A stretch of 64,000 nt of DNA from positions 9,101-73,100 of the forward strand of contig JAZDMX010000023.1 of NCBI GenBank assembly GCA_043800555.1, in the 5' to 3' direction. The translations under genes were made by a program, and so were the position numbers. The first letter of the stretch is position 1, and each line of letters begins with the position of its first letter. The notes below the pieces were generated by a model. It searched no databases and had not been told where the DNA came from. It saw nothing but the letters and a program-made list of their open reading frames with translations. Below, piece after piece: positions 25,088 through 44,042 of the stretch. This DNA comes from Candidatus Omnitrophota bacterium (GTDB lineage: Bacteria; Omnitrophota; Gorgyraeia; Gygaellales; Profunditerraquicolaceae).

Positions 25088-25378
25088 ATGTATTACGTTT
25101 ATGCCCTAAAATCAGTTAAGTACGATAGAATATATATTGGCATAACTAAAGATTTAAAAAATAGAGTTAAAGAGCATAATTCGGGGAAAACGAAATCTAC
25201 AAAATTTTATAAACCTTGGATATTGTTTTATTCAGAAATAGTTGATTCTCGTATAAACGCGAGAAAACGGGAAAAACAACTTAAATCGGGTTACGGTAAA
25301 GAGTTTTTAAAGAACAGGCGTAATATTAAACTCTTTAATGCGCCTGTAGCTCACACGGATAGAGCAAGAGTTTCCTAA
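25088..25378 (+). CDS. Stand-alone GIY-YIG (URI-domain) nuclease, COG2827-like
   Basis: YVYALKSVKYDRIYIGITKDLKNRVKEHNSGK...KPWILFYSE...ARKREKQLK. The 3' end of the ORF reads into the following tRNA gene. Confidence 0.8.
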   Translation: MYYVYALKSVKYDRIYIGITKDLKNRVKEHNSGKTKSTKFYKPWILFYSEIVDSRINARKREKQLKSGYGKEFLKNRRNIKLFNAPVAHTDRARVS

Positions 25379-25413
25379 ACTCTGGGTAGCAGGTTCGACT
25401 CCTGCCAGGCGCA
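25340..25413 (+). tRNA. tRNA-Arg (anticodon CCT)
   Basis: Manual cloverleaf: GCGCCTG / TA / GCTC-ACACGGATA-GAGC / A / AGAGT-TTCCTAA-ACTCT / GGGTA / GCAGG-TTCGACT-CCTGC / CAGGCGC / A. Anticodon CCT at 25374-25376. No encoded CCA. Confidence 0.75.
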
Positions 25414-25436
25414 TATGATTCTTAGTTATCGGTGTG

Positions 25437-26650: not shown

Positions 26651-27016
26651 ATGAATAGAACTATATTCCTAATGATACTCCTTGCGTTTATTCTTTATTT
26701 TCCATTTATTCCCCGGGCCCAAGCCGACTCAATGGATAAACTCAGGATTCAACAACAGCTTGACCAGTTTAAAAACCAGCTCCAAACCAATGCCCAAAAT
26801 ACCAACGCCCGGGCCCAAAACCTTATCCAAGAAAAAGAAATAGAAGCAACGCAATATCAGGAAAGACAAGAAGTAACTTCCGATGTCTTTGATAAATTCG
26901 CCAAAAAAAGCCAGCAATCGAGTTTCCAGCATATGGCCCGCATATACGGGATGCCTCTTTTGATAATGGCGGCTGTCGGCGTTATCCTATTGGTAATTTG
27001 GCACCAAAACGTATAG
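26651..27016 (+). CDS. Hypothetical Gln-rich secreted/membrane protein
   Basis: N-terminal signal, a Gln-rich coiled region and a C-terminal hydrophobic segment. Confidence 0.35.
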   Translation: MNRTIFLMILLAFILYFPFIPRAQADSMDKLRIQQQLDQFKNQLQTNAQNTNARAQNLIQEKEIEATQYQERQEVTSDVFDKFAKKSQQSSFQHMARIYGMPLLIMAAVGVILLVIWHQNV

Positions 27017-27084
27017 TAAAAAGGGGGACGTTTCTACTTTTATCGAGTCTGATTGCCGGAAAAATAGAAACGTCCCCCTTTTAC
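27017..27084. repeat. Palindromic hairpin repeat, copy 3 (copy 2 in inverse orientation, loop included)
   Basis: AAAAAGGGGGACGTTTCTACTTTT ... AAAATAGAAACGTCCCCCTTTT. The loop ATCGAGTCTGATTGCCGG is the reverse complement of the copy 2 loop. Confidence 0.85.
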
Positions 27085-27245
27085 TCTTATACGGTGATTT
27101 TTCAAAAAACACTTGACAAATAACAGGTTATATGTTAAAAAAGTACAAATGGTATTAACTCAAAAATATCGCCTAGGCATATAAATCATTCGCGCCTAGT
27201 TTATATAACGCAAACAGGGTATCATAAAAAAGGAGGAGAAAGAAA

Positions 27246-28580
27246 ATGAGTAAACGCTTAAGTTTGGTGCTTGCGCTTCTATTTACGATAGGCACAACAT
27301 TCGCCTACGCTGAAGTGCAAAATATCAAGGTATCGGGCGATATCTTGGCAAGCGGAGTAACAAGAAGCCATTTTGGCCTCATTGCCGCAACATCAGGGGA
27401 TAAGAGCGCGTTGAAGCAAAGTTTTATTATGTCTCAAATCAGGCTTCGTGTTGACGCCGACCTTACCGACAATGTCATGGCAACCGTAAGGCTTATCAAC
27501 GAAAGAATCTGGAACGGCCAAAACGATACTACCTCTAGCGGAAATTCGAATATTGACCTTGACTTAGCCTACGTTACCTTAAAGGAATTCTTATACTCTC
27601 CTTTAAGCTTCACAGTCGGCCGTCAGGAAATCCGTTTTGGTAATGGATTGGTCATGGGCAACGCAAAGGCGGACATCAGCGGGACATCAACCATTCCTAC
27701 CGATTTAAGCGAAAGAAAGGCCTTTGACGCCATACGCGCTACTCTTAATTATGATCCTTTAGTGATTGATTTGGTCTATGCTAAGGTAAAGCAAGCTACT
27801 TCCGTGGATAGGAATACCATTGGCTTAGCCGGCGTTAATGCTACTTACGCGGTAAACAAAGATACCAATGTGTCTGCTTACTATTTCTTAAAAAGGGACA
27901 ACTATAAAGGCACTTCCCTGGGACGCGGCGAGCCCGATCAATTAAACACTATCGGCGGCTTGGTAACCAGCACCCCGATCGAGAACTTAACCGTATCCGG
28001 AGAGGCTGCTTATCAGTTCGGAAGAAACGATTCTTCCAACACAACCCAGAAAAAACATGATGCCTGGGCGTTTCAGGCTATGGCGGATTATATCTTTGCC
28101 AAGGTCAAAACAACTCCTAAAATCGGAGCTTCGTGGACCTATTTATCCGGGGGCAAGGCCAGCGGCACTGACGCTACCAGGAATCAAGGCTGGGACGCAA
28201 TGTTCTACGATCAGAAATTGAACAATATCGTCTACGCAATCCTGCCTTTTACGAATATGAATGCTTTCAACTTAAAGGCCAGTTGCAAACCGTTAGATGA
28301 CGTTACGGTGTCTGCTGTATATGGTTATTATAATGTAGCCAAGCAGAGCACCGCGGCTGTCATCAGCCCATTCTACTATGACGGGTCTGCTCAATATTTA
28401 AACACCAACTATACAGGCAAAACACATCTCGGCGACGCAATTGATTTAACCGCAACCTATGACTATACCGAAGATGTGCAGTTAGGTTTAACCTATGGAT
28501 GGTTTAAACCGGGCAATGCCCTGGCAACAAACGAGAAAGACGCCAATCAGTTAATTGGTTCTTTAAAGGTAATATTCTAA
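27246..28580 (+). CDS. Outer-membrane beta-barrel protein (porin-like)
   Basis: Signal peptide (LFTIGTTFAYA), alternating amphipathic beta-strand pattern and a C-terminal Phe (SLKVIF). Confidence 0.55.
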   Translation: MSKRLSLVLALLFTIGTTFAYAEVQNIKVSGDILASGVTRSHFGLIAATSGDKSALKQSFIMSQIRLRVDADLTDNVMATVRLINERIWNGQNDTTSSGNSNIDLDLAYVTLKEFLYSPLSFTVGRQEIRFGNGLVMGNAKADISGTSTIPTDLSERKAFDAIRATLNYDPLVIDLVYAKVKQATSVDRNTIGLAGVNATYAVNKDTNVSAYYFLKRDNYKGTSLGRGEPDQLNTIGGLVTSTPIENLTVSGEAAYQFGRNDSSNTTQKKHDAWAFQAMADYIFAKVKTTPKIGASWTYLSGGKASGTDATRNQGWDAMFYDQKLNNIVYAILPFTNMNAFNLKASCKPLDDVTVSAVYGYYNVAKQSTAAVISPFYYDGSAQYLNTNYTGKTHLGDAIDLTATYDYTEDVQLGLTYGWFKPGNALATNEKDANQLIGSLKVIF

Positions 28581-28601
28581 GGCTGTTTATGTAAATAAAG
28601 G

Positions 28602-28637
28602 AGCCCTTGGGGGCCAACACCTCCGAGGGCTTTTTTA
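28602..28637 (+). terminator. Rho-independent terminator after the OMP gene
   Basis: Imperfect stem GAGCCCTTGG...CCGAGGGCT (8/9) followed by TTTTTTA. Confidence 0.6.
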
Positions 28638-28835
28638 TTACTCTGATAGCTTTAGGCCAATAGCCTGTAAGTCAATGCCAAGCTTAGAACAAAAATATAT
28701 CAAACAATCTGAATTTGATGTATATTATAAAAGGTGCGAAGAACTTTCAGAATGCTCCATAGTTTTCGTAATTATTTAAAACTTTAAACCATAGGCTATA
28801 GGCTATCGACTATAGACCTGTATATTTTTTATCCT

Positions 28836-30395
28836 ATGTTACACTTGGCCTTCATCTTCCATATGCACCAACCCTATTACAAAGACCTGCTTACCGGCCA
28901 GGCGGACCTTCCCTGGGTCAGGCTTCACGGGGTAAAAGACTACCTCGATATGGTGCAGATACTGGAGAAATTCCCGAAAATCCATCAAACTTTCAATATT
29001 GTCCCGTCCTTATTTGAACAAATCGAGAATTACGCCGACGGCTCCATAAAAGAAAGGTTCCTTGAGCTTTCATATAAAGAAGCTGACCACCTCTCCGGAA
29101 ACGATAAAAATTTCATCCTGAACAATTTCTTCTCCATCAATAAAGACAGGGTCATCTCCAACTTTCCCCGCTACTATGAATTGTATTTCAAGAAACAGAG
29201 GAAAGAAGAATTCAGCACCCAGGATTACCTTGACCTTCAGCTATGGTTTAATTTAGCCTGGATCGACCCGTCATTGCGGGCCAAATCCCCGGAACTAAAA
29301 GCAGTTATAGCCAAGGGAAGGTTTTACAGCCAAGAGGATAAGCGGCTTGTCCTGGACAAACAGCTAAGCATCCTGAAAGAAATACTCCCGGCATACAAAA
29401 GGTTTTGCGGCTCCGTTCAGGGCGAGCTAAGCGTAACGCCTTATTATCACCCTATACTGCCGCTATTGTGCAGTTCAAATAGCGCCAAGGAGGCAAACAG
29501 GCAAAGCCTTTTGCCCAACAAGGAATTCCGGTACCCTCAAGACGCCAAGGCCCAAATTGACGGCGCTGTAAATTTCTACCGGGAGAGATTCGGGTCTATC
29601 CCCAACGGCATGTGGCCGTCGGAAGAATCGGTAAGCGAGAGCATCCTTCCCTTTATAATCGATTCGGGCATAAAATGGATAGTCGCGGATGAAGCCATAC
29701 TCTTTAAATCCCTGAAATCAAAGGAGAGGGCCACTAAATTGCTCTACCAGCCGCATTCATTGAAAAGAAAGCAGGGGAGCCTCAATATTGTCTTCCGCGA
29801 CCGCAATCTTTCGGATTTAATCGGATTTGTTTATCATTCCTGGAAGGCCCGGAATGCGGTGGAAGATTTTATGCGGCATTTGGGCAATATAAATAAAACC
29901 TTTGAGAACCAGGACATCCTGGTAACCATAGCCATGGACGGAGAAAACGCCTGGGAATATTACGCCAATGACGGCCATGACTTCCTGGAGCTGCTTTATC
30001 AAAGCCTTAGCGAATCCGATTTCATAAAAGTTACAACGGTATCGCAATACCTGGAGAAACATGCGGTTAGATCCGAAATAAGGCATTTGAGCGCCGGTTC
30101 CTGGATATACGGTAATTTTAACAAATGGATGGGTAATTTCTATAAGGCCAAGGCCTGGGATTGGCTGCTTTGCGCCCGGGCCCAGCTGGATAAAGCAATG
30201 CCCGGCTTATCAGAGCAGGACAAACAGCTTGCCTTAAAACAAATTTATGTTTTGGAGGGCAGCGATTGGTTCTGGTGGTACGGCGAAGATCCCGATGGCT
30301 CCTTTGACAGGTTATTCCGCCTGCATCTACGCAACTTCTACTCAATAATAAAAGTTCCGGCCCCGGATTATTTGTTAAACCCTCTAAGTGCTTGA
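28836..30395 (+). CDS. Glycoside hydrolase family 57 enzyme (glycogen branching/alpha-glucan processing type)
   Basis: GH57 N-terminal signature LAFIFHMHQPYY...LPWVRLHGVKDY. Confidence 0.85.
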   Translation: MLHLAFIFHMHQPYYKDLLTGQADLPWVRLHGVKDYLDMVQILEKFPKIHQTFNIVPSLFEQIENYADGSIKERFLELSYKEADHLSGNDKNFILNNFFSINKDRVISNFPRYYELYFKKQRKEEFSTQDYLDLQLWFNLAWIDPSLRAKSPELKAVIAKGRFYSQEDKRLVLDKQLSILKEILPAYKRFCGSVQGELSVTPYYHPILPLLCSSNSAKEANRQSLLPNKEFRYPQDAKAQIDGAVNFYRERFGSIPNGMWPSEESVSESILPFIIDSGIKWIVADEAILFKSLKSKERATKLLYQPHSLKRKQGSLNIVFRDRNLSDLIGFVYHSWKARNAVEDFMRHLGNINKTFENQDILVTIAMDGENAWEYYANDGHDFLELLYQSLSESDFIKVTTVSQYLEKHAVRSEIRHLSAGSWIYGNFNKWMGNFYKAKAWDWLLCARAQLDKAMPGLSEQDKQLALKQIYVLEGSDWFWWYGEDPDGSFDRLFRLHLRNFYSIIKVPAPDYLLNPLSA

Positions 30396-30433
30396 CATCT
30401 AATGAGTTTTATGTTATAAATGTTCAAGTTGAA

Positions 30434-31000
30434 ATGGATAAAAAAGACATATACGAACACTTAGCAAAGATCTACCTTGATGCTTCTTCGAAGAAGAAAA
30501 AAAGAAATAAGGCTTATCCAAAACTTTTCAAGAATCTTTTTATCGTAAGCATATTCCTAATGGCCGGCCTATCTACAACTTTATTATCTTCGGCGTTTAA
30601 GAAGCAAAATTTGAATTCCGAGACCGCTTTAGTCCTTCAAAACGGGCACGCGAAGATTAATTTTAATTTCAACCCCGCGAAAAAAGAATCCTATACCCTT
30701 GAGCTTAACCGCCTGAACCTGGCCCGCTTTAAAATGCTGGCTTTCTCCGTAAGAAGTATGGGCCCTAAGGACAAAATAACCCTGCGGGTTGAATTTACAA
30801 ACTCCTTCAAAGAAAAATCCGAGATTTATTTAAGGGGCCTGCCTTCCAACTGGCAGGATTTTAGGATCAATCTATCCGAATTCAAGAATATAAGCGACTG
30901 GTCGGAAATAGACAGCCTTTCTTTTTGCGTGGAAGAATGGAACGTATCCGGGAGTAAGGGGCTGATTTTCATCGATAATGTCCGGCTCCTTAAGACCTGA
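30434..31000 (+). CDS. Hypothetical bitopic membrane protein with beta-rich C-terminal domain (possible carbohydrate-binding)
   Basis: ATG at 30434 (the track start at 30392 is a TTG). One TM (LFIVSIFLMAGL). It sits between GH57 and the ParA-CBM48 gene. Confidence 0.4.
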   Translation: MDKKDIYEHLAKIYLDASSKKKKRNKAYPKLFKNLFIVSIFLMAGLSTTLLSSAFKKQNLNSETALVLQNGHAKINFNFNPAKKESYTLELNRLNLARFKMLAFSVRSMGPKDKITLRVEFTNSFKEKSEIYLRGLPSNWQDFRINLSEFKNISDWSEIDSLSFCVEEWNVSGSKGLIFIDNVRLLKT

Positions 31001-31061
31001 AACGCCTGGGCCAGGCATGCATAAGCTATCCTGAGTTGACGAAACAAAAGGAGGAAATATA

Positions 31062-32195
31062 ATGCGCATAATAGCCATCACTAACCAAAAGGGGGGTTGC
31101 GGCAAAACGACAACCTCGGTTAATTTAGCCGCTTCTTTGGCTACTAACGGTAAAAAAGTGCTGCTAATAGATATTGACCCGCAAGCGCACGCGACACTTG
31201 GATTAAATATCAAATCCTCGCTTAGTATTTATAATGTTTTGTCAAAGACCGCGCATCAAAAGGCGAAAATCGAAGATATCATCCAAAACATAAGCCCGGA
31301 TTTCGACATAGCGCCGTCCAGCATCATTTTGAGCACCCTTGAACAGGAGTTGGCCGGCGAAATAGGCAGGGAATCCCGGCTCTGGGACACCTTAAACAAT
31401 TTTAAAGGCCTTTACGATTATATACTGATAGATTGCCCTCCAAATTTAGGCATTCTGACCATAAACGCTATCCGGGCAGCCAATGAAATAATTATCCCGG
31501 TAGAAGCCAGCAGGTTCTCCCTGGAAGGCATGGGCCAGCTCATAAGCATAGTAAGTTTGGTCCGTGACCGCTTAAACCACGCTGTAAGCGTCAAAATACT
31601 GGTTACTAATTTCGATTCCCGCCTGGCGCATTCTTTCAAAATGCTTTTGAAGATCAAATCCGATTTTAATAATAAACTATTCTCCACCATTATCCACGTG
31701 AACGTAAGGTTAAAAGAAGCCCAGAACCAGGGAACCCACATATTCAATTTCGACAAGTATTCCCGCGGGGCAAAAGACTATTACAGCCTCTCAAGGGAAA
31801 TCATCACTCAAGAAGAACCCGGGGCTAATGCTGCCATCAAGGCGGAGAGCGCGCCCAAAGCGGCGGTTAAGCCGATCGTAAGCCTGGAAAAGAAAATGAA
31901 CGAGATACTTAAAGCAGAACTTCCGAAACTTACCGAAGTAATGTTCTCGGTTGTTGCGCCCGAAGCTAAAGAGGTTTACGTTACCGGAGAATTCAATAAC
32001 TGGAAACTGGAAGCGTCCGGCCGCATGCTCAAGAATAACGGGACCTGGAGCAAAAAACTAAACCTGACCAGCGGGAAATACCGCTACCGCTTTGTTATTG
32101 ACGGAAATTGGACGGAAGACTCATCCAACCCCTTAAAAGAAAAGAACCCCTACGGCTCGATTGATTCCCTGATCGAAATCGGAAAGAAACAATAA
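31062..32195 (+). CDS. ParA/MinD-family P-loop ATPase fused to a C-terminal CBM48/AMPK-beta-type glycogen-binding domain
   Basis: Deviant Walker A NQKGGCGKTTTSVNLA followed by a ParA fold. C-terminus EVYVTGEFNNWKLE...GTWSKKLNLTSGKYRYRFVIDGNWTEDSSNP matches the AMPK-beta GBD/CBM48 pattern. Confidence 0.8.
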   Translation: MRIIAITNQKGGCGKTTTSVNLAASLATNGKKVLLIDIDPQAHATLGLNIKSSLSIYNVLSKTAHQKAKIEDIIQNISPDFDIAPSSIILSTLEQELAGEIGRESRLWDTLNNFKGLYDYILIDCPPNLGILTINAIRAANEIIIPVEASRFSLEGMGQLISIVSLVRDRLNHAVSVKILVTNFDSRLAHSFKMLLKIKSDFNNKLFSTIIHVNVRLKEAQNQGTHIFNFDKYSRGAKDYYSLSREIITQEEPGANAAIKAESAPKAAVKPIVSLEKKMNEILKAELPKLTEVMFSVVAPEAKEVYVTGEFNNWKLEASGRMLKNNGTWSKKLNLTSGKYRYRFVIDGNWTEDSSNPLKEKNPYGSIDSLIEIGKKQ

Positions 32196-32206
32196 GGGAG
32201 GTGCGT

Positions 32207-32614
32207 ATGATTAAGAAAAAACCGGCAAAAAAGAAAATAATAAAGAAGGCAACAAAAAAGGCGGGCGTCAAGAAGCCTGCCAGGAAAATCGCCCCCAAGA
32301 AGAAAAAAACAGTTGGCAAGGTTAAAAAGGCGGGCGTCAAGATTAAAAAAACCAAAGAAAATTTAATTGGCGCCATAACGCATTATTTCCCGCACGTGCA
32401 GGCAGCAGTAATAAAATTAGAGTCCCCCTTATCAGCCGGGGAAACGATTAAGGTCAAGGGCCACACAACGGATTTTACGCAAAATATTACCTCTATGCAA
32501 ATTGACCATGTCAGCGTAAATTCAGCTAAAACCGGGCAAGAAATCGGCCTGCTGGTCACTTCCCGGGTAAGGCAAGGAGACCTAGTTTATAAAGTTAAAC
32601 AAAAAGGAGGCTAA
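32207..32614 (+). CDS. Lysine-rich (histone H1-like tail) protein with C-terminal small beta-barrel domain; candidate ParA partner
   Basis: GGGAGG is 5 nt upstream of the ATG at 32207. N-terminal KKKPAKKKIIKKATKKAGVKKPARKIAPKKKK... The ~90-aa C-terminus weakly resembles translation-factor domain 2. Confidence 0.6.
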   Translation: MIKKKPAKKKIIKKATKKAGVKKPARKIAPKKKKTVGKVKKAGVKIKKTKENLIGAITHYFPHVQAAVIKLESPLSAGETIKVKGHTTDFTQNITSMQIDHVSVNSAKTGQEIGLLVTSRVRQGDLVYKVKQKGG

Positions 32615-32615
32615 A

Positions 32616-32795
32616 GTGAGGCTTTCGGAAGTAGAAAAAAGAGCAAAGGCTTTAGGGATCAAAGATACCTGGAGGCTTTCTAAGAAAGAACTGATCAAGA
32701 CGATCCAGCAGGTTGAAGGGAATAACCAATGTTTCGGGACCATTCGCGCCTGCAGCCAATTAATCTGCTGCTGGAGGGGAGACTGCATAAGATGA
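32616..32795 (+). CDS. Small Rho_N/SAP-like domain protein with Cys-rich tail (GTG start, 59 aa)
   Basis: VRLSEVEKRAKALGIKDTWRLSKKELIKTIQQ resembles a Rho-N-terminal-like helix pair. The stop overlaps the next ATG as ATGA. It is absent from the ORF track (<60 aa). Confidence 0.35.
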   Translation: MRLSEVEKRAKALGIKDTWRLSKKELIKTIQQVEGNNQCFGTIRACSQLICCWRGDCIR

Positions 32796-32977
32796 AATAC
32801 CGCTGCCAAGTCTGTAACCGCGATATCGATGAATTTGCCAGCCTTGCCCATATTAAAGCAGAGGAATATTTATTAGAACTAATCAGGCGCGACCATCCTG
32901 AATGGCACGAGAACAAGAAAACCTGCCACAAATGCGTCGAATATTACCGCAAATTAGTAAAAGAAAACGAGGTCTGA
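32792..32977 (+). CDS. Small zinc-ribbon protein (CxxC...CxxC, 61 aa)
   Basis: MKYRCQVCNRD...KKTCHKCVEYY. The track ORF from 32729 is an upstream extension. Confidence 0.35.
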   Translation: MKYRCQVCNRDIDEFASLAHIKAEEYLLELIRRDHPEWHENKKTCHKCVEYYRKLVKENEV

Positions 32978-33074
32978 TTTAAGGGGGGCGCATAGGAGCG
33001 CCCCCTAAAAATATAACATTTTTGAGTACATACCCATAATAAATACGGCGTTAAAACCCGGTAAGTTCAAGTAA

Positions 33075-33413
33075 ATGCAACCTCGAGGAAGGCCTAAAAA
33101 ATACAGGATAGTGCACCTTGACCCTAAGATAAGCCAATTCAGCCCCCGGGGCAAACCCGGCAGGCCGAATGAAATAGACCTTAGCCTAGACCAGTTTGAA
33201 GCCATAAGGCTGGCTGATTATATGGGATTACCTCAAAAAGAAGCAGCCAAGTCAATGCGCATATCCCAACAGACCTTTAGCCGGATACTAAAAAAGGCGC
33301 GGAGAGGCTTAGCTAACGCTTTAGTCAAAGGCAACGCCATAAAGATACAAGGCGGAAACTACATAATCACTTCCCGCGAAGATCATGCTCCGACAAAGGG
33401 CCAAAACAGCTAA
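33075..33413 (+). CDS. DUF134/UPF0251-family predicted DNA-binding protein
   Basis: The conserved ...LDQFEAIRLADYMGLPQKEAAKSMRISQQTFSRILKKARRGLANAL... pattern of this family (sigma-70 region-4-like HTH). Confidence 0.6.
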   Translation: MQPRGRPKKYRIVHLDPKISQFSPRGKPGRPNEIDLSLDQFEAIRLADYMGLPQKEAAKSMRISQQTFSRILKKARRGLANALVKGNAIKIQGGNYIITSREDHAPTKGQNS

Positions 33414-33687
33414 AAGGCCCGCAATAAAACCCGCCAAAAAACCTTCATTTTACCGCTTTTTACCTACTTTTACCTTTGTGCTCAACTTCCTATAATATAT
33501 CTTATGTTAACTTGAGCATATTGCCTAAGTCAACTTAACCTCTTGTTAAATAAGGAGTTACGTTACCCTGGTATTTACCTGTGGAAAAGCAATTTTTTAG
33601 TTACTTAAACTTACCGCTTTCTTTTAAGGTTGACATTTACGGATGGATTCCTGAAGGAATTTACCGGGATTTTTTGCCTCTAATCGC

Positions 33688-34811
33688 CTATTTCATTCTC
33701 CGGGTTAAAATTACCTGGGCGGGAAAAATCGAATTATCTCCCAAGCGGCCATTGATCTTATCCAGCGCCTTAACCAAAGCCTCTCTGCGCCTTTGTTCGG
33801 GTAATAAAGGCAGGTAACTTTGCCACTCTAAACTGCTGGCAGTTACTCCCAGGGCCCTGATTTTTGGCCTTTTCCGGGCCTCCTGGGCCATTAATTTAAG
33901 GGCTCTCAAGTATATTTCATAGCTATCATTGGTAGCCATTGAAAAGGTTTTTTGGGCCAGAAAATCGCCTTTATCCGGCATATTCAGCCAGATATGGGTT
34001 GTCCGGGAGGCAAGCTCGTTCTGCCTTAAACGCTCGCCAACCATTTCAGATAATACCCTGATCCAGGCGTTGATAAACCGGGGGTTTTCCAAAGCTTTCG
34101 GCAAGGTGTAGGAATGGCTTATTGACTTAGGCCGTTCGCCGCTTTCCCGGTTTCCTTAAACTTACCGGAATTTTCATTAACCCCTGCTGCGCCAAAGAAT
34201 CCCGGTAAGTTCAGGTATAAATCCCAGCAGCTTCTTAACCCCTGGCGCATTAAAATCTGCCCGGTTTTGCCTGCCATGCCACAAGCCTTGGTAAGCGGAG
34301 TTAAAGCCAGGACATCCTTAAGGTTGGAATCGTCTATCCGGGTAACTCCGTCAGGCTTATTGACCTTAGAAGCCAGCTTGGCAAGAAGTTGGTTTTCGGC
34401 TATGCCAACTGAAGCGGTAATGTTAAAGTTTGCATATATCTGCTCCCGGATCTGTTTAGCTAATTTAAGCGGTTGGGGGTAATCCCGGATATCCAGCTGG
34501 AATTCATCAATTGAAACGTAATTCAGCGGGAACCCGAAACCTTTAAGCAGCTCAAGGATTTGCCCGGAAGTCCAGATATACTTGGCCTGGCTTGCCGGCA
34601 CAAACTCTAAATTTGGGCAGATGTTAAAGGCGTCTTTTGAGAGCATCCCGGAATGTATTCCCAGGCGCTTAGCTTCATAGCTGGCGGCGCAAACCACGGT
34701 GCGCGTTTTATTGGCGCGCGAGCCCACAATCAAAGGCTTGCCTTTAAGGCGCGGGTTTATGGCCTGCTCAATTGAAGCAAAAAACGCGTCCATATCGATG
34801 TGCAGGATCAT
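33688..34811 (-). pseudogene. dinB: DNA polymerase IV (dinB), interrupted by frame lesions
   Basis: N-terminal 2/3 (MILHIDMDAFFASIE...SIDE...) in one frame and little-finger domain (ERPKSISHSYTL...) in another. In-frame stops and frame switches cluster at 34156-34215. Confidence 0.6.
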
Positions 34812-34846: not shown

Positions 34847-35155
34847 TCAGGTAATTATCTTGTCTATCTGCCAACGGAAGGTGGAATTATTGAATGATAT
34901 CTGGTAAAGCTGGCCGGCGCTAATCACGGAGAAATAATTAATCCGGGCCTGGCCCAGCCGCTCCTGCCAATTGTAGGTTATGGTCTCTATGCCATATTCT
35001 TTATTATTCCAAAGAAAAGTTTTAGGGTAAATCCTGGTATTCTTAAAATAAGCCAGGACTTCGATGCGCTCGCCTAAATCATCCGGGTCAAACCCGGATT
35101 TATCCGGCTCAAATTTGTCCCATCGCGCATTAGGATTAAAGCTATTTTGCCCCAT
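34847..35155 (-). CDS. Hypothetical protein (102 aa) between lexA and dinB; likely SOS-regulon member
   Basis: Same strand and tight spacing within the lexA–dinB unit. I recognise no family. Confidence 0.45.
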   Translation of the reverse strand: MGQNSFNPNARWDKFEPDKSGFDPDDLGERIEVLAYFKNTRIYPKTFLWNNKEYGIETITYNWQERLGQARINYFSVISAGQLYQISFNNSTFRWQIDKIIT

Positions 35156-35217: not shown

Positions 35218-35829
35218 TTAATATTTCCTGATTACCGTCATCAGCTTCCCGATTACCTTGAATTCTTCAAAAATTGGCGGATAATCCGGGTTAGCCGCTT
35301 CCAAATGGTATTTATTGTTCTTACGCGCCAGCCTTTTTAAAGTAACTTCGTTATCATCCAAAAGCGCGGCCACAATCTCGTTATTTTCGGCATAGGGTTG
35401 TTTCTTAATAACCGCTACATCCCCATCAAGAATGCCGGCATCAACCATGCTATTGCCTTTGACCTTTAAGGCAAAAACGTCGTCAAAGCCTAAACGGCCC
35501 AGGAATAAATTATCCACATCCACATAACCTTGGATTTCTTCATAAGCCAGATTGGGCTTTCCGGCTAAAATTGACCCAAGAATAGGTATTTTATTGAAAC
35601 TGGCGCGTTCGGTTAATTCAATTGCCCGGGATTTGTTATTCATACGCCTGACCAATCCTTTCTGCTGTAAAGCCTTTAAATAGTCTCTTACTGTGCCGGT
35701 GGACTTGACCCCCAACTCCCCTGCTATCTCCCTGATCGTAGGAGGCAGCCCCTCCCCTATCCGTTTACGGATAAAATTGAGCGCCTTTTCCTGTTTGTGC
35801 GTTAAATACGGCTTCTTTTCCATAGCCAT
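35218..35829 (-). CDS. lexA: LexA repressor
   Basis: N-terminal wHTH (LTHKQEKALNFIRKRIGEGLPPTIREIAGELG) and a C-terminal S24 peptidase with the Ala-Gly cleavage site, Ser (GNSM) and Lys. Start taken at MAMEKK (35829). Confidence 0.85.
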   Translation of the reverse strand: MAMEKKPYLTHKQEKALNFIRKRIGEGLPPTIREIAGELGVKSTGTVRDYLKALQQKGLVRRMNNKSRAIELTERASFNKIPILGSILAGKPNLAYEEIQGYVDVDNLFLGRLGFDDVFALKVKGNSMVDAGILDGDVAVIKKQPYAENNEIVAALLDDNEVTLKRLARKNNKYHLEAANPDYPPIFEEFKVIGKLMTVIRKY

Positions 35830-35860
35830 AGATATACCACACAAATGTGTGGTTTGTCAA
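35830..35860 (-). promoter_or_regulatory. lexA promoter with 16-bp perfect palindromic operator CCACACAAATGTGTGG (candidate SOS box)
   Basis: On the minus strand: TTGACA - AACCACACATTTGTGTGG - TATATC, then ATG. The palindrome fills the -35/-10 spacer. Confidence 0.55.
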
Positions 35861-39192: not shown

Positions 39193-40331
39193 TTCTTGGA
39201 TTTCGATATTCCTTTTTGCAAATCCAGCACTAGCTTATGCCTTCTCTCCTTCTCCTGCCTGGATACCGTATCCGCCATCTTAAAGGCTGCGGTATGAGGG
39301 CGGGGAGAATATTTGAATATAAAGGCGGCGTTAAACCGGACAGATTTTACCAGGCTAAGGGTATCTTTGAAATCAGCTTCATCCTCGGCCGGGAAACCAA
39401 CGATTATATCGGTTGTCAGCGCGCCCCCCTTTACAATTTTACGATAATTATCCGCTAAATCCAAATAGTATTTTCTGGAATACCCGCGGTTCATAAGCTT
39501 CAGGATCCGGTCCGAGCCGGATTGAGCCGGCAGATGCAGGTATTTCTTCAGTTTCCCGGCGCCTGCCATAGCCTGAAACAATTCTTTCCCGGCATCTTTC
39601 GGGTGAGAAGTGATAAACCCGAATTCCTTCAAGCCCTTAATAGCGTTAACCATTTCGATAAGCTTAACGAAATCAACTCCCTGGCTCCGGAAGGAATTCA
39701 CGTTCTGGCCCAATAAAGTAAATGCGGTAATGCCCTTATCTACGGCGCTCTCTATCTCCCTGATTATATCTTCGGGCTTGCGGTGGCGTAAATTCCCGCG
39801 GCTATAAGGAACAACACAGTAAGAGCAAAAGTTAGAGCAACCTTCGGAGATGACCACAAAAGAATGGTTTTTATCCCGGTAGAAACCGGTATGGTAAATT
39901 TCTTCCGGCCTGGCATCCCCGTCAGTCTCCCATATTTTACGCTCAAAGGCCTTTTGATCCCGGGAAAGTTTTTGGATAATATGGGGTATTTTAGCGATAT
40001 CCGCCGGGCCAACCACAAAATCAATGTTCGGCGAGCGTTCAAATGCCGTGTTCTGGTAATTCTGGGCCATGCAGCCTATAAGCCCGATAAGCGGCTTATT
40101 CTTACCGGCCTTGGCGGCAACCCTGCCGATCTCTGACCAGGCCTTATCTTCCGCGTGCTGGCGCACAGAACAGGTATTAATGATTATTATGCCAGCCTTA
40201 TCCGGATCATCGCAGATCTCATACCCTGATCCCTGTAATAACCCAGCCACTACCTCGGAATCCCGGATGTTCATCTGGCACCCGAAGGTGCGGACAAAAA
40301 CTTTCTTTTTTTGTATCTCTTTATTAATCAT
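39189..40331 (-). CDS. miaB: tRNA methylthiotransferase (MiaB/RimO-like radical SAM MTTase), short form without a clear TRAM domain
   Basis: MTTase N-domain (VFVRTFGCQMN...IIINTCSV). Radical SAM CxxxCxxC (CSNFCSYC). It lies next to miaA. Confidence 0.7.
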   Translation of the reverse strand: MINKEIQKKKVFVRTFGCQMNIRDSEVVAGLLQGSGYEICDDPDKAGIIIINTCSVRQHAEDKAWSEIGRVAAKAGKNKPLIGLIGCMAQNYQNTAFERSPNIDFVVGPADIAKIPHIIQKLSRDQKAFERKIWETDGDARPEEIYHTGFYRDKNHSFVVISEGCSNFCSYCVVPYSRGNLRHRKPEDIIREIESAVDKGITAFTLLGQNVNSFRSQGVDFVKLIEMVNAIKGLKEFGFITSHPKDAGKELFQAMAGAGKLKKYLHLPAQSGSDRILKLMNRGYSRKYYLDLADNYRKIVKGGALTTDIIVGFPAEDEADFKDTLSLVKSVRFNAAFIFKYSPRPHTAAFKMADTVSRQEKERRHKLVLDLQKGISKSKK

Positions 40332-40408
40332 GTTGTTGTAAAGATGCTAGCGTCTCGGGGCTTTGTCACGTACGTTCATTGGTTCCATTCAAAAATAAAA
40401 CAATATCT

Positions 40409-41692
40409 TTATTCTGCATTATTGCCAATTTTAATTTCTCTAAGCACTGCTTTTACTAATTCTTTTCCTTGTAATCCACCAATTTGATGTTTTTTGATAA
40501 TTTTTTCAAGATCATATTCGTCTTTATCAATTACTATAATATTTCTCGGTAGAATTACATAATCTGGATGGTTATCTATAGCATTTGAAATTATTAAACT
40601 ATCATTAGAATATCTTCCGATAAGATTATGAATTTTTGCAGCAATAACATATCCCTTATAAGGAAACAAAAAGTCAATTTCGCCAGCTAAAATATTCCCG
40701 CCACCTTTCGAGCAATCAAAGAATGCATCTGCCTTTTCCACAGTCCAAGTTCCAGAGCCCATTAGAAGCTTATTTGGCATTAATTCAGAGAAAACTTTTA
40801 ATGCTTTTATATAATCTTTTTCTATCATTAAAATTTTGAGCATGCTGTTTGATTTCTCATAATATCGTAGATCTAGATAAAGCTTATAACAAGCCGGCTG
40901 TTCTACGGCCATTTCAGCCAAAACCCTTCGTTCCTCTGGAGACAATACTCTATGAGCAAATAAATTAGCTAGGCCTTCAGCAAAGTTTATATCATTTATA
41001 TATTTTGAATCGCTTGTTATTGGCCAATTATCGGGCAAGAGATTTGATAATGAATAATGGTGCCCTAATTCGTGTATTAATGTTACACGAAATAAAGCTT
41101 TCTCTAAATCTGTAATTTTTTCATCTGCAAGCCTAGTTTTTAGCTTATTCGAAAGTTTTTCAATTAATTCAGGACGAATTACTACATAACAACCTCCTTT
41201 GACAAGTTTAATACCCATAAACTCCAAGTCTTGCGGTAGCATACTCCAATAAGCAAGAGGCGTTTCTAAAGTAACTCGCTTTTGTTTTAATAATAGCTGT
41301 CTTATGCCTTTGTCATCTAGCCCCTGAATTTTTTTAAAGTCATTAATTCCTAATTCTATATCTTCCTTTGAATTAGTCTTTTCGTCAGTGAACAAACTAT
41401 AATCTTTTTCGTCTAAGACTAAAATAGCATATAGTGGTTGCTTAACAATGCCTAGAACCTCATTAGCATCTTCAATCTTAGGACTCAAAGGTTTAATAAT
41501 TCCCTCAACTAAATCGGCGTACTCTTTAACATTTTCTGAGTAAAGAATTTGCTGGGTACATAGGCCGGGAGTTTCTTTCTTCTGCAATTTATTATCCGCC
41601 CTCATTTGATTCCTCTCCTTCCTATGATAACCACTAGCAAGACAGCCATTTAACATCAATAAACCAACTAAAAGGCAAATTAAACTTTTCAT
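40409..41692 (-). CDS. Predicted zinc-metallopeptidase-like lipoprotein (HExxH) in a low-GC island
   Basis: Lipobox LMLNGC. HELGHH, then a glutamate about 25 residues downstream (EGLANLFA), the zincin arrangement. Local GC is clearly lower than the flanks. Confidence 0.45.
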   Translation of the reverse strand: MKSLICLLVGLLMLNGCLASGYHRKERNQMRADNKLQKKETPGLCTQQILYSENVKEYADLVEGIIKPLSPKIEDANEVLGIVKQPLYAILVLDEKDYSLFTDEKTNSKEDIELGINDFKKIQGLDDKGIRQLLLKQKRVTLETPLAYWSMLPQDLEFMGIKLVKGGCYVVIRPELIEKLSNKLKTRLADEKITDLEKALFRVTLIHELGHHYSLSNLLPDNWPITSDSKYINDINFAEGLANLFAHRVLSPEERRVLAEMAVEQPACYKLYLDLRYYEKSNSMLKILMIEKDYIKALKVFSELMPNKLLMGSGTWTVEKADAFFDCSKGGGNILAGEIDFLFPYKGYVIAAKIHNLIGRYSNDSLIISNAIDNHPDYVILPRNIIVIDKDEYDLEKIIKKHQIGGLQGKELVKAVLREIKIGNNAE

Positions 41693-41769
41693 ATTCTTAA
41701 GTTTCTAATTCTTTAACTAACTCATTTATTCGTAGTTATTTAGCTTCTTCAATATCCCCAAAATCATCA

Positions 41770-41945
41770 CGCGGTACTTACACCAACGGTCAGCCGAAAG
41801 TCCGGATGAAAACTTTTTTCTTATCTTCTTTCATATTTATGCCTTATGGTATCGTGCAAAAGTGTCTAAAACTGTATAGTAGAAGCTGTTCTATACATCT
41901 TTTGTCTGCTTCAAATATTATCTCTAGGAATCTTTCAAATTGCGT
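41770..41945. repeat. Internally deleted partial copy of the element at 43120-43640 (segments R1, TGTCTAAAACTGT box, R2)
   Basis: 41800-41835 ~ 43170-43205 (35/36 nt). 41864-41900 ~ 43240-43278. 41902-41945 ~ 43577-43620. Confidence 0.7.
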
Positions 41946-42023
41946 TATTTCTTTACAAAATCTTGCCTCGAAACAAAAACCCAGGCACTTTAAAACGCCT
42001 GGGTTAATCGATCCTGATGCCTT

Positions 42024-42353
42024 TTAAATTCCAGCTTTCTTAAAAGTGCCTTTGACGAATTCGAGATACTCAAGGCCATCCTTCTCTCCTACAAAAAATC
42101 CGCCGTCATAAAGATTAACATTTCGCTCCTGCCTCATCTTATTGCCAAGCACGAGAATATCTTCATCCTTAAGTAATTGACTCAGCTTCTCCAAAATCTT
42201 CACATGATGGCCGGCTGTGCTTCTTACTTTATAGCCTTTCTTGGCAATCAGCATAATGCCCAGCTTAATAAGGGCGTCGTAGCAGAATTTGAAAACAACG
42301 CCGGGGATATCCGACTCTTTAGCGATTTTAAGATCGTGCAAAACAGAACGCAA
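42024..42353 (-). CDS. HEPN-domain protein (toxin-like partner of the adjacent nucleotidyltransferase)
   Basis: Small all-helical protein with an R-x4-HH motif (RSTAGHH), immediately downstream of an MNT gene. Confidence 0.5.
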   Translation of the reverse strand: MRSVLHDLKIAKESDIPGVVFKFCYDALIKLGIMLIAKKGYKVRSTAGHHVKILEKLSQLLKDEDILVLGNKMRQERNVNLYDGGFFVGEKDGLEYLEFVKGTFKKAGI

Positions 42354-42415
42354 AAACTGATCAATCTGCTTTTATTGAAATGTTAGCTTTTGAAAATATT
42401 GGCTCTCGAAATGAA

Positions 42416-43000
42416 TCATACAAGCCTTACAGTTTTAGTTTTGAAGACGCTGTTTATAAAATGGCTCTTATCTTTTTTCTTTGCCTCAAATTCCTTCGGG
42501 TTTAGATTCGTCACATTAAATTCCCGGCCTGCATCTTTTTGCAGCTTAGCAATAATCCTCTGCAATTCTAAAATGGAATGTGTGCCGATAGCCAGCAGGT
42601 CGATATCGCTTGACGATCCCATTTTGTTGCTTGCGTACGAACCGAACAAATAAGCTTCTTTAATCCCTTTGATACCGCTTAACGCATCTTTGAGTTTCTT
42701 TTCTATGCCATGAGTTTTTAAGAATATCTGACGGTAATGCTCCAAAACCGGGTTATCTTTTGCAAGAAAGAAATACCTTTGTTTCCCGCGAAATTCGCTC
42801 TTGAAAAGCCCCTCTTTTTCCAATTCCTTAAGCTTGGTTTCGGTATTCTTAGGATCAATTTCTAAAATCCTGGCCAGCTCATTAATATAGACTTGAGCCT
42901 CCGGATTAAGGAAATAGTAATCCAGTAATTTTATTGCCACTTTTGAACGTAAGGATATCATCTTTTCACCATGGTTATGGTAATAAATTACCATAACCAA
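42416..43000 (-). CDS. Minimal nucleotidyltransferase (MNT) with N-terminal winged-helix domain
   Basis: GSYASNKMGSSSDIDLLAI is the Pol-beta-type NTase GS...D.D motif. An N-terminal wHTH is present. Confidence 0.65.
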   Translation of the reverse strand: MVMVIYYHNHGEKMISLRSKVAIKLLDYYFLNPEAQVYINELARILEIDPKNTETKLKELEKEGLFKSEFRGKQRYFFLAKDNPVLEHYRQIFLKTHGIEKKLKDALSGIKGIKEAYLFGSYASNKMGSSSDIDLLAIGTHSILELQRIIAKLQKDAGREFNVTNLNPKEFEAKKKDKSHFINSVFKTKTVRLV

Positions 43001-43119
43001 TTATTTTGTCAAGTAAATTACGGTTCAAGGCATAATCCATCAAATCCTGCTTTGTCCTTATCAATCCCTATCGCCTTTCCTAACCTTCAACAATATCAAC
43101 GGGTTCTGTTTACCAGATG

Positions 43120-43205
43120 TTGCTCAAATACGTCAGAATAGTCGTATAATACTGCTTCCATCGGCCAGCCCAGAGTCCGAATGAAAACTTTTTTCTTATC
43201 TTCTT
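43120..43205. repeat. Repeat segment R3/R1 (TCCATCGGCCAGCC core, then ...GAATGAAAACTTTTTTCTTATCTTCTTTCATAT)
   Basis: Shares its core with 41775-41835, 44080-44140 and 47491-47548. Confidence 0.6.
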
Positions 43206-43285
43206 TCATATCAGTAGATTATAAATTCTTGCCTATGTGTCTAAAACTGTCAAAGTAGATGAATGTATACGACTATCACGCGTTT

Positions 43286-43639
43286 TTATTCAACTTTTAT
43301 CGAATTTCTCCATTCCATCAGGTTCTCGATGTCTAAAACTGTAAAAACAGGATAATTCCTGTAATCACGTCGTGGCTTACACCAGCCCTTTGCAATCCAA
43401 TAATAGATTGTCTGACGATGAACCCGTAAGATTCTCGCTGTTTGAGTTAGATTGTATCTTTTGCCCGACCGCCGTGTGAATTCTTGAAAAACTTTTGCAT
43501 CAGCTTGTTCTATCCGGTTATCAATCGCTTGTTCTTTGAGTCTTCGTTCCTCAATAAACTGGTCTAAACATTTTTTATCTGCTTCAAATATTATCTCCAG
43601 AAATCTTTCATATCGCCATTGCTCTTTGTTCCCGCTCAA
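43286..43639 (-). CDS. Excisionase/AlpA-like HTH protein (mobile-element associated)
   Basis: LTQTARILRVHRQTIYYWIAKGW resembles a MerR-superfamily excisionase HTH. Its 5' end is duplicated at 41902-41945. Confidence 0.4.
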   Translation of the reverse strand: MSGNKEQWRYERFLEIIFEADKKCLDQFIEERRLKEQAIDNRIEQADAKVFQEFTRRSGKRYNLTQTARILRVHRQTIYYWIAKGWCKPRRDYRNYPVFTVLDIENLMEWRNSIKVE

Positions 43640-43826
43640 ACCATTTTTTAAAACTGTTCATTAAGCACCCCCATTTATTTTGAACGTTTCGCTCTCTTAG
43701 GATTCTTACCTTTTGTTATTAACTTTCGCGAAGGCCCTTCCATCTTATTGATGCGCTCAGAAAGTATTTTTACCTCTTGTTTTAACGCTTTTATTTCGTT
43801 CTCAAGGTTTTGCGTCGCTGATATTA

Positions 43827-44042
43827 CTAAAATACTGGCCGATCCTGTATTAGTATAGGAAAAAACATAGAGAAAACACCCCGAAGTAGCCGCATAAATT
43901 CTTCCAATTCCTTATCATCTGCCTTATTAGCGGCATCTTGCCTCTGCCTGAACGAAGACAAAAAATCGATAAACTTCTTGCCCTGAACATCGGCAATAGC
44001 CTCCTTACAGGCACTTATCAATTTTTCGCTTAATTTTGACAT
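43827..44042 (-). CDS. Hypothetical small protein; a coiled-coil reading frame continues downstream in another frame (possible disrupted mobile-element gene)
   Basis: The minus strand at 43640-43826 translates in another frame to ...LENEIKALKQEVKILSERINKMEGPSRK. Confidence 0.25.
   Translation of the reverse strand: MSKLSEKLISACKEAIADVQGKKFIDFLSSFRQRQDAANKADDKELEEFMRLLRGVFSMFFPILIQDRPVF

Follow-up and report, generated by a model that had tools for sequence, protein, structure and literature searches.

We analysed a stretch of 64,000 nucleotides (nt) of contig JAZDMX010000023.1 from a Candidatus Omnitrophota bacterium (assembly GCA_043800555.1, positions 9,101 to 73,100), hereafter called the window, and in particular the gene at positions 31062-32195 of its + strand. 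This gene encodes a protein of 377 amino acids (aa) in which a ParA-type ATPase is joined to a C-terminal CBM48 through a linker of ~45 residues; we call it ParA-CBM48. The explanation that we favour, and hold tentatively, is that ParA-CBM48 is an orphan, Soj-derived ATPase of the ParA/MinD type that would bind cytoplasmic glycogen through its CBM48 and would thereby tether and distribute glycogen granules in a dynamic manner. Judged from the sequence, glycogen is a plausible cargo or matrix for such a protein, and we infer that ParA-CBM48 serves to position this cargo.

Domain structure and conserved residues

The initial annotation of this region had listed its open reading frames (ORFs) and had described a ParA ATPase fused to a glycogen-binding domain. 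All ORFs were present as described, and the fusion was borne out both by Pfam models above their gathering thresholds and by its conservation across phyla. The Soj/ParA-type deviant Walker A ATPase domain occupies residues 1-255 (31062..31826, +), and matched AAA_31 at 4.5e-56 (residues 1-176) and CbiA at 1.5e-19. The C-terminal glycogen-binding module of the AMPK-beta type (residues 301-376; 31962..32195, +) matched AMPK1_CBM (PF16561) at 2.2e-14 and CBM_48 (PF02922) at 1.6e-6, with 53.9 and 28.8 bits against gathering cut-offs of 26.8 and 22.4, respectively. Between the two lies a low-complexity linker rich in Ala, Lys and Glu (approximately residues 251-300; 31812..31961, +), which had no domain match in Pfam and differs in length among lineages, planctomycete members having longer linkers. 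No NCBIfam model reached its cut-off for ParA-CBM48. Hence, the family has no curated name, and NCBI calls the 377-aa protein merely 'AAA family ATPase'.

A phmmer search of the PDB returned the chromosomal ParA of M. xanthus as the closest solved structure to the ATPase domain (8RAY, 2e-49); T. thermophilus Soj was matched as well (3e-41), and the ATPase is 44% identical to Soj of B. subtilis. The CBM48 matched the CBM structures of AMPK beta1 and beta2 at ~5e-10. Key residues of the ATPase are K10 and K15 in the deviant Walker A motif (K10-G-G-C-G-K15-T), D39, the family-specific H43 (in DPQAH) and the equivalent of the Walker B residue D125. The equivalents of K11, K16, D40 and D125, which are the signature and Walker A lysines and the catalytic aspartates, were invariant in all 74 members compared. 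The DPQAH histidine was also present in every family member, at a position where Soj has asparagine. The non-specific DNA-binding patch of B. subtilis Soj consists of R189, K201, R215 and R218 (PMC6393308). R187 and R216 of ParA-CBM48 are the counterparts of R189 and R218; across the 74 members the equivalent of R189 was invariant, and those of K201 and R218 were mostly basic.

The C-terminal 105 residues of the 74 members were aligned with human AMPK beta1, in which glycogen binding requires the tryptophan pair W100/W133 (PMC7393401). Both tryptophans (W314 and W350 in the window) were invariant in 74 of 74 members. The other contact positions had changed only conservatively: R343 aligns with K126 of AMPK beta1, a position held by K or R in 63 of the 74 members, and Y364-G365-S366-x-D368 aligns with L146-G147-T148-x-N150. 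The glycine was kept in 73 members (the remaining one has an alignment gap there), the equivalent of N150 was N or D in 72, and that of L146 was mostly Y or F. ParA-CBM48 has no signal peptide, so that any ligand must be cytoplasmic, and glycogen synthesis is reported to be encoded in metagenome-assembled genomes of Omnitrophota (PMC8542988).

Family distribution and absence of ParB

When one genome was scanned for each species, more than 575 relatives emerged, of which the best 80 were full-length including the CBM48. A metagenome scan seeded with non-Omnitrophota members added another 80 full-length loci, independent of the first set, giving 160 loci in total. Going by database record names, at least eight phyla carry the fusion. 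Its carriers include Omnitrophota, Planctomycetota (Phycisphaerae, Pirellulales, Sedimentisphaerales), Myxococcota, 'delta proteobacteria', Desulfobacteraceae (Desulfobacterota), Gemmatimonadales (Gemmatimonadota), Rokubacteria, Eisenbacteria, Auribacter and Spirochaetaceae. An exhaustive search with the CBM48 region was of no help in counting the ParA fusions, since it was swamped by proteins with tandem CBM48 repeats. As a separate observation, the proteins P0368-P0500 from this search are ~480 aa long, unannotated, and carry four tandem CBM48-like repeats close to the ParA-fused module.

A tblastn search with B. subtilis Spo0J found no Spo0J/ParB homolog in either the window or the first set of 80 loci, and ORF clustering revealed no ParB-like neighbour cluster among the 160 loci. 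ParA-CBM48 thus lacks the adjacent parB gene or ParB partner by which canonical ParABS is recognised. The shared DPQAH histidine, the shared loss of the R215 equivalent and the shared CBM48 indicate a separate orthologous group rather than a lineage-specific decoration of Soj. On these sequence characters, ParA-CBM48 is a distinct orphan ParA clade within the ParA/MinD superfamily.

These results bear directly on one alternative, namely that the protein is a plain chromosome-partitioning ParA (Soj) whose accessory domain is of minor importance. Chromosomal ParAs are its closest solved structures, JGI labels many family members 'chromosome partitioning protein', and mnmG (GidA), a gene typically found near the replication origin, lies close by in two non-core loci. 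Yet none of the 160 loci has an adjacent ParB, the derived signatures H43 and the lost R215 equivalent are absent from Soj, and the binding residues of the CBM48 are strictly conserved. Moreover, the fusion is present in Myxococcota and Planctomycetota, phyla in which canonical ParABS is known. We consider it very unlikely that ParA-CBM48 is an ordinary Soj.

Partner proteins

Outside the core Omnitrophota, the gene at +1 to the fusion often opens with a ParB-like ParA-binding peptide (LGRGLEDVSHLFLS), described by the motif LG[RK]GL-[ED]-[DE]-[IV]-[SA]-x-[ILVF]-F-[LI]-S. LGRGL together with hydrophobic residues is the ParA-binding, ATPase-activating N-terminal motif of chromosomal ParB (PMC12462528); that paper also describes a bipartite pocket in M. 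xanthus ParA. Among 922 ORFs, a strict LGRGL regular expression had 11 matches, ten of them in +1 genes to ParA-CBM48 and the eleventh in a gene for a DUF4912 protein beside a GH57 gene. We built a position-specific scoring matrix (PSSM) from the first locus set and scored it on the metagenome set, in which 21 of the 134 adjacent ORFs reached a score of at least 25, all of them at +1 and on the same strand. Only two of the 548 other ORFs did so, both downstream in the same clusters. The ParB-like peptide on the adjacent gene in other phyla implies that this family does follow a two-component logic of ParA and partner.

The LGRGL peptide occurs on a variety of proteins, namely a degenerate ParA/CbiA-like one (CbiA 7e-8), a PD-(D/E)XK-like one, short proteins of ~180 aa and the DUF4912 protein. 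Several further features of these genes were observed. A family of ~290 aa combines an N-terminal LGRGL-type peptide with a degenerate ParA/CbiA-like domain whose Walker A motif is corrupted (e.g. SGKGVRGKT); it occupies +1 in loci L049, L051, L067, L073, L071, L077, L093, L096, L134 and L163, and the gene after it frequently encodes a PD-(D/E)XK-like protein without Pfam match. In L051 (9725-13101) and L084 (4587-8209), the fourth gene downstream of ParA-CBM48 encodes a protein that combines a Lys-rich tail, the peptide LGKGLEDISTLFLS, a DUF4912 domain (7.9e-38) and a Glucodextran_B-like domain, and a GH57 gene comes immediately after it. No functional description of DUF4912 was found in the literature available to us, the coverage of which was incomplete. 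Clusters c13, c84 and c102 had no match in Pfam or NCBIfam.

In the Omnitrophota the corresponding candidate is a membrane protein, which we call TM202 (30434..31000, +; 188 aa). The initial annotation had placed a bitopic membrane protein upstream of the ATPase gene. The protein is indeed there, with its start moved from TTG 30392 to ATG 30434 (MDKKDIYEHL..., as called by NCBI), and it proved to be an invariant neighbour: the TM202 gene lies immediately 5' of the ATPase gene in all 40 Omnitrophota loci that carry it, with a median gap of 22 nt. It had no match in Pfam or NCBIfam. In an AlphaFold2 (AF2) model with a mean pLDDT (per-residue model confidence) of 80, residues 3-19 form an N-terminal helix; a Lys-rich stretch without order follows, then a transmembrane (TM) helix (residues 29-56) and a CBM11-like beta jelly roll (residues 65-186). 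By the positive-inside rule, the N-terminus is predicted to be cytoplasmic and the jelly roll periplasmic.

The most conserved part of TM202 is its N-terminal segment 'YEHLAxIYLDAS', which is near-invariant. Such conservation points to a cytoplasmic binding partner, for which the adjacent ATPase is the obvious candidate. TM202 is therefore a candidate membrane-anchored partner, and its N-terminal helix is, from its sequence, most likely the ATPase contact in the window. The N-terminus (DIYEHLAKIYLD) can be aligned by eye to LGRGLEDVSHLFLS. A hidden Markov model and a BLOSUM-based PSSM did not single it out, however, and we therefore do not claim motif homology between the two. Neither TM202 nor the Lys-rich protein encoded downstream of ParA-CBM48 carries an LGRGL-type motif in the window; both have conserved basic N-terminal regions.

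Genes for alpha-glucan metabolism and the cell envelope

Upstream of TM202, the window encodes a GH57 enzyme (28836..30395, +) that is alpha-glucan-active and amylopullulanase-like. It matched Glyco_hydro_57 (PF03065) at 5.2e-64, and its best PDB matches were the amylopullulanases 9JLQ and 8ZYI (~1e-91). The enzyme contains WPSEE (E263) and DGEN (D368), which we take to be the catalytic motifs within the conserved regions of GH57. It has no signal peptide, is predicted to be cytoplasmic and would act on the same polymer as the neighbouring ATPase.

The GH57 gene directly precedes TM202 in 22 of the 32 evaluable Omnitrophota loci. Outside the core Omnitrophota, GH57 was found in three other architectures: in L043, two genes upstream; in L051/L084, beside the DUF4912 protein; and in L089, as a GH57-DUF3536 gene three ORFs upstream. 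GH57 is thus the sole carbohydrate-active (CAZy) family that recurs beside ParA-CBM48, in four architectures in all. The linkage to GH57 seen in the initial annotation holds in most core Omnitrophota loci; elsewhere it is sporadic, and other glycogen genes are not enriched.

This gene context, together with the residues of the CBM48, speaks to the question of whether the module binds glycogen at all. Folds of the E-set/CBM48 type are widely reused, the C-terminal domain weakly matched a T9SS (type IX secretion system) plug protein in NCBIfam, and the exhaustive search revealed many uncharacterised proteins with multiple CBM48-like repeats. Most non-Omnitrophota loci, furthermore, are without glycogen genes. 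The beta-sandwich could accordingly serve a protein-protein contact or another ligand, glycogen being irrelevant. The sugar-platform tryptophans are invariant, however, the other contact positions have changed only conservatively, and the recurrence of GH57 points to an alpha-glucan. A role unrelated to glycogen is, in our judgement, quite improbable.

A different role for glycogen is that of a signal. The CBM48 is of the AMPK-beta type and might report the glycogen or maltodextrin load of the cell to a ParA that regulates segregation, division or a membrane complex. The closeness of the ATPase to chromosomal Soj would fit such a sensor of glycogen status, as would the partners in other phyla, whose degenerate ParA-like and PD-(D/E)XK-like domains are not obviously those of glycogen proteins. 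However, neither ParB nor division genes are linked to the fusion in the 160 loci, the neighbouring GH57 and DUF4912/GH57 genes direct attention to the polymer as such, and the long flexible linker fits tethering better than allostery. This explanation seems unlikely to us.

Further upstream lies a gene for an outer-membrane porin (27246..28580, +; Alginate_exp 8.4e-34), the role of which in the module is uncertain. The porin gene precedes the cluster in most Omnitrophota loci, either before GH57 or, where GH57 is absent (7 of 32), directly before TM202. The order porin-(GH57)-TM202-ParA is kept across the Omnitrophota and invites comparison with BcsQ: the ATPase might place a complex of TM202 and the porin that handles alpha-glucan or imported oligosaccharides, and the CBM48 would then bind nascent or incoming glucan. 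Models of BcsQ matched the ATPase (CBP_BcsQ in Pfam, 2.3e-11; TIGR03371, 1e-20), as expected of a shared superfamily, and in L081 an exopolysaccharide (EPS) export cluster lies a few genes downstream. Yet the BcsQ scores are far under the family cut-offs, the conserved core contains no synthase or translocase, the GH57 enzyme is cytoplasmic, and the membrane protein and the porin are absent from the fusion loci of all other phyla. An envelope or polysaccharide organiser of this type is rather improbable.

Proposed mechanism

Under the favoured explanation, in which ParA-CBM48 grips glycogen as its cargo, ATP-driven dimerisation would join two CBM48s and raise their avidity for glycogen, much as dimerisation acts on the C-terminal membrane anchor of MinD. 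The dimer would also form a non-specific DNA-binding surface, for which three of the four Soj residues are kept. Glycogen particles would thereby be tethered to the nucleoid and spread over it. A peptide on the partner protein would trigger ATP hydrolysis and release, and so make the tether dynamic. In the Omnitrophota, the N-terminal helix of TM202 would contact the ATPase and couple the glycogen-bound protein to the cell envelope. A broader formulation, which we regard as possible though doubtful, holds that a class of ParAs in many phyla grips glycogen directly, is reset by ParB-like peptides on diverse adaptors and actively tethers, spaces and partitions glycogen granules, the adaptor in the Omnitrophota being the membrane protein, whose periplasmic domain is of a glycan-binding-like type.

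Several observations weigh against this explanation. The equivalent of R215, one of the four DNA-binding residues of Soj, is hydrophobic in every one of the 74 members. Beyond the core Omnitrophota, GH57 occurs in only three lineages of ~75 loci, and neither glgA/B/C/P nor other glycogen genes are enriched near the non-Omnitrophota members. It is the ATPase that bears the module for cargo binding, whereas in classic ParA logic the partner binds the cargo. With respect to TM202, the predicted location of its globular domain is the periplasm, where it cannot touch cytoplasmic glycogen, and its N-terminus had a median rank of 200 among 492 Omnitrophota ORFs when scored with the PSSM of the LGRGL peptide (rank 80 for the C-terminal half). 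On the supporting side, LGRGL was present in 0 of the 78 loci with a TM202-type or c11-type upstream protein and in 35 of the 74 others (Fisher test, 5e-14), which suggests that the TM-type and LGRGL-type partners are alternatives, although this statistic is confounded by phylogeny.

The Lys-rich protein and small downstream genes

Downstream of ParA-CBM48, the window encodes a Lys-rich protein of 135 aa (32207..32614, +). Its gene starts at ATG 32207 behind the Shine-Dalgarno sequence GGGAGG, 11 nt past the stop codon of ParA-CBM48. The initial annotation had described a Lys-rich N-terminal tail followed by a small beta-barrel, and the AF2 model confirmed this layout, with residues 1-50 disordered and the barrel (residues 52-130) at a pLDDT of ~90. 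Among homologs, the composition of the tail is conserved and its sequence variable; the barrel of ~80 residues is very conserved. The top match of the barrel in Foldseek was the C-terminal domain of a U32 peptidase (4he6; E-value 1.7e-4, TM-score 0.80), followed by domain 2 of EF-Tu (E-value ~1e-2). Similarity to the EF-Tu domain 2 or U32 type was marginal at the sequence level, with a PDB profile E-value of 0.09. Neither the protein (in Pfam or NCBIfam) nor its 1405 homologs (in Pfam) had a match. Hence, the earlier assignment of the barrel to GTP_EFTU_D2 stands at the level of the fold and not at that of Pfam. Some homologs are labelled 'translation elongation factor-like protein' or 'putative protease'.

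The tight operon of ParA and the Lys-rich gene seen in the window is not general. Across the Omnitrophota, the Lys-rich gene lies at most three ORFs downstream of ParA-CBM48 in 30 of the 33 evaluable loci and is directly adjacent in seven. In 17 of the 33, a gene for a DUF4870-like membrane protein of ~108 aa lies between the two. This DUF4870-like gene, which is absent from the window, was observed at L004:6565-6891 and in 24 other Omnitrophota loci.

The Lys-rich protein is a candidate second partner or activator of the ATPase, or a candidate accessory protein that binds DNA or other polyanions. The tail has more the look of one that binds polyanions in general. The earlier proposal that it activates the ATPase found no backing: nothing singles the protein out for this role, given the character of the tail and the frequent separation of its gene from parA. 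We also considered the segment ITHYFP of the barrel as a motif, as it scored like the C-terminal half of the LGRGL motif. The segment forms strand 1 of the barrel and is typical of the barrel family; the resemblance was therefore treated as a coincidence.

Two small ORFs follow. The first encodes 59 aa (32616..32795, +), with a weakly Rho_N/SAP-like N-terminus and a Cys-rich C-terminus. It begins with a GTG behind a Shine-Dalgarno sequence, 1 nt after the stop codon of the Lys-rich gene, to which it is translationally coupled. Its match to Rho_N in Pfam (1.9e-3) was below the cut-off. The ORF is kept only in the closest loci (~16 by tblastn), and in L081 and L082 the corresponding position holds a predicted gene of 60 aa. 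The second encodes a zinc-ribbon-like protein of 61 aa with two CxxC pairs (32792..32977, +), which had only weak matches to zinc-ribbon models and is likewise kept only in the closest Omnitrophota loci. Its start at 32792 overlaps the preceding stop codon (ATGA). Of the two ATGA-coupled small proteins in the initial annotation, the overlap between the ORFs and the start of the second are thus real; the Rho_N character of the first is not upheld by Pfam. A DUF134 gene is also conserved solely in the closest relatives.

A scan of positions 27000-33600 for promoters and terminators gave results no better than those for shuffled sequences (15 vs 10.6±3.2 and 6 vs 9.7±4.3). A sigma-70-like match of 11 out of 12 positions was noted at 31036-31063 (+; TTGACG, 16 nt, TATAAT), with its -10 element overlapping the start codon and ribosome-binding site of parA. 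This promoter-like site is probably fortuitous and belongs to the ribosome-binding region.

Comparison with known systems

ParA/MinD ATPases place DNA, carboxysomes, chemoreceptor arrays and division sites; to our knowledge, no such ATPase has been linked to the storage of a polysaccharide. In agreement with a remark in the initial annotation, no paper describing a glycogen-binding ParA was found in the literature consulted, the coverage of which was incomplete. ParA-CBM48 shares with ParABS the ATPase fold and the catalytic residues and, in many lineages, the LGRGL ParA-binding peptide on a partner gene. It differs in lacking ParB, a CTPase and a parS context, in the loss of one DNA-binding arginine, and in its additional CBM48 and DPQAH histidine. 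Its partners are unrelated to those of ParABS, comprising degenerate ParA-like, PD-(D/E)XK-like and DUF4912 proteins and, in the Omnitrophota, a membrane protein.

With McdA/McdB and other orphan ParA cargo systems (PomXYZ, ParC/PpfA and MipZ), it shares the pairing of an orphan ParA-type ATPase with a small partner (here a candidate) that has a disordered basic N-terminus, and a proposed cargo that is a cytoplasmic body other than DNA. In systems of the McdAB type the cargo module is not on the ATPase, however, and a polysaccharide granule as cargo would be without precedent. McdB consists of a disordered N-terminal region, a coiled coil and a C-terminal region with an invariant tryptophan. 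The Lys-rich protein, in contrast, has a basic disordered tail followed by a beta-barrel, with neither coiled coil nor tryptophan. MinD resembles ParA-CBM48 as a deviant Walker A ATPase with a C-terminal appendage for dimerisation-dependent binding to a surface and with release by a partner peptide. In MinD, however, an amphipathic helix serves as the appendage and the membrane as the surface, whereas ParA-CBM48 has a folded CBM48 at the end of a long linker, would bind to glycogen as its surface, and has an ATPase that resembles Soj and not MinD.

The adaptors AMPK beta, PTST and STBD1, with modules of CBM48 or CBM20, use the same tryptophan pair to recruit proteins of regulatory or non-catalytic function to glycogen or starch. 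These adaptors are eukaryotic; their modules are joined to a kinase scaffold, coiled coils or motifs for autophagy and are not known to be fused to a ParA ATPase. PhaM and PhaF, finally, resemble the proposed system in its outcome, as storage granules are held on the nucleoid and shared between daughter cells, and they have Lys-rich, histone-like tails. They differ in having no ATPase, in their unrelated sequence and in their polymer, polyhydroxybutyrate (PHB). None of the systems compared combines ParA with CBM48.

A conserved ParA with a glycogen-binding module, accompanied by recognisable ParB-like peptides on its partners, offers a directly testable handle on the organisation and inheritance of glycogen in bacteria of eight or more phyla. 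If the broader formulation is true, ParA-CBM48 would be the first system of the ParA type to serve a polysaccharide store, and in the Omnitrophota the position of that store would be linked to the cell envelope. Because nature here departs from the usual ParA logic by letting the ATPase hold the cargo, it would be informative for models of ParA-driven transport. The analysis also flags uncharacterised partner families, namely TM202, the degenerate ParA-like proteins with LGRGL, the PD-(D/E)XK-like proteins and the DUF4912 proteins with LGRGL near GH57.

Other features of the window

Three further regions of the window drew our attention. A Y-family DNA polymerase is split into an IMS part of 230 aa (34122-34811, -) and an IMS_C part of 138 aa (33691-34104, -), with a stop codon or frameshift between them. 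Upstream of it, a LexA-like repressor and an uncharacterised protein of 102 aa are encoded (34850-35155, -, and 35221-35844, -). The split may reflect a pseudogene, a fault in the assembly or a truly divided gene in an SOS cassette. At 25088-25414 (+), a GIY-YIG ORF of 96 aa (1.3e-16) overlaps with its 3' end the gene for tRNA-Arg(CCT) at 25339-25414. Finally, the GC content falls to 0.36-0.39 at ~40000-44000, compared with 0.44-0.49 elsewhere. This low-GC stretch encodes a protein with a nucleotidyltransferase domain (42419-43000, -), an uncharacterised protein of 109 aa, a MerR/helix-turn-helix protein and a 427-aa protein without Pfam match, and it may be an island or an insert of the toxin-antitoxin type.

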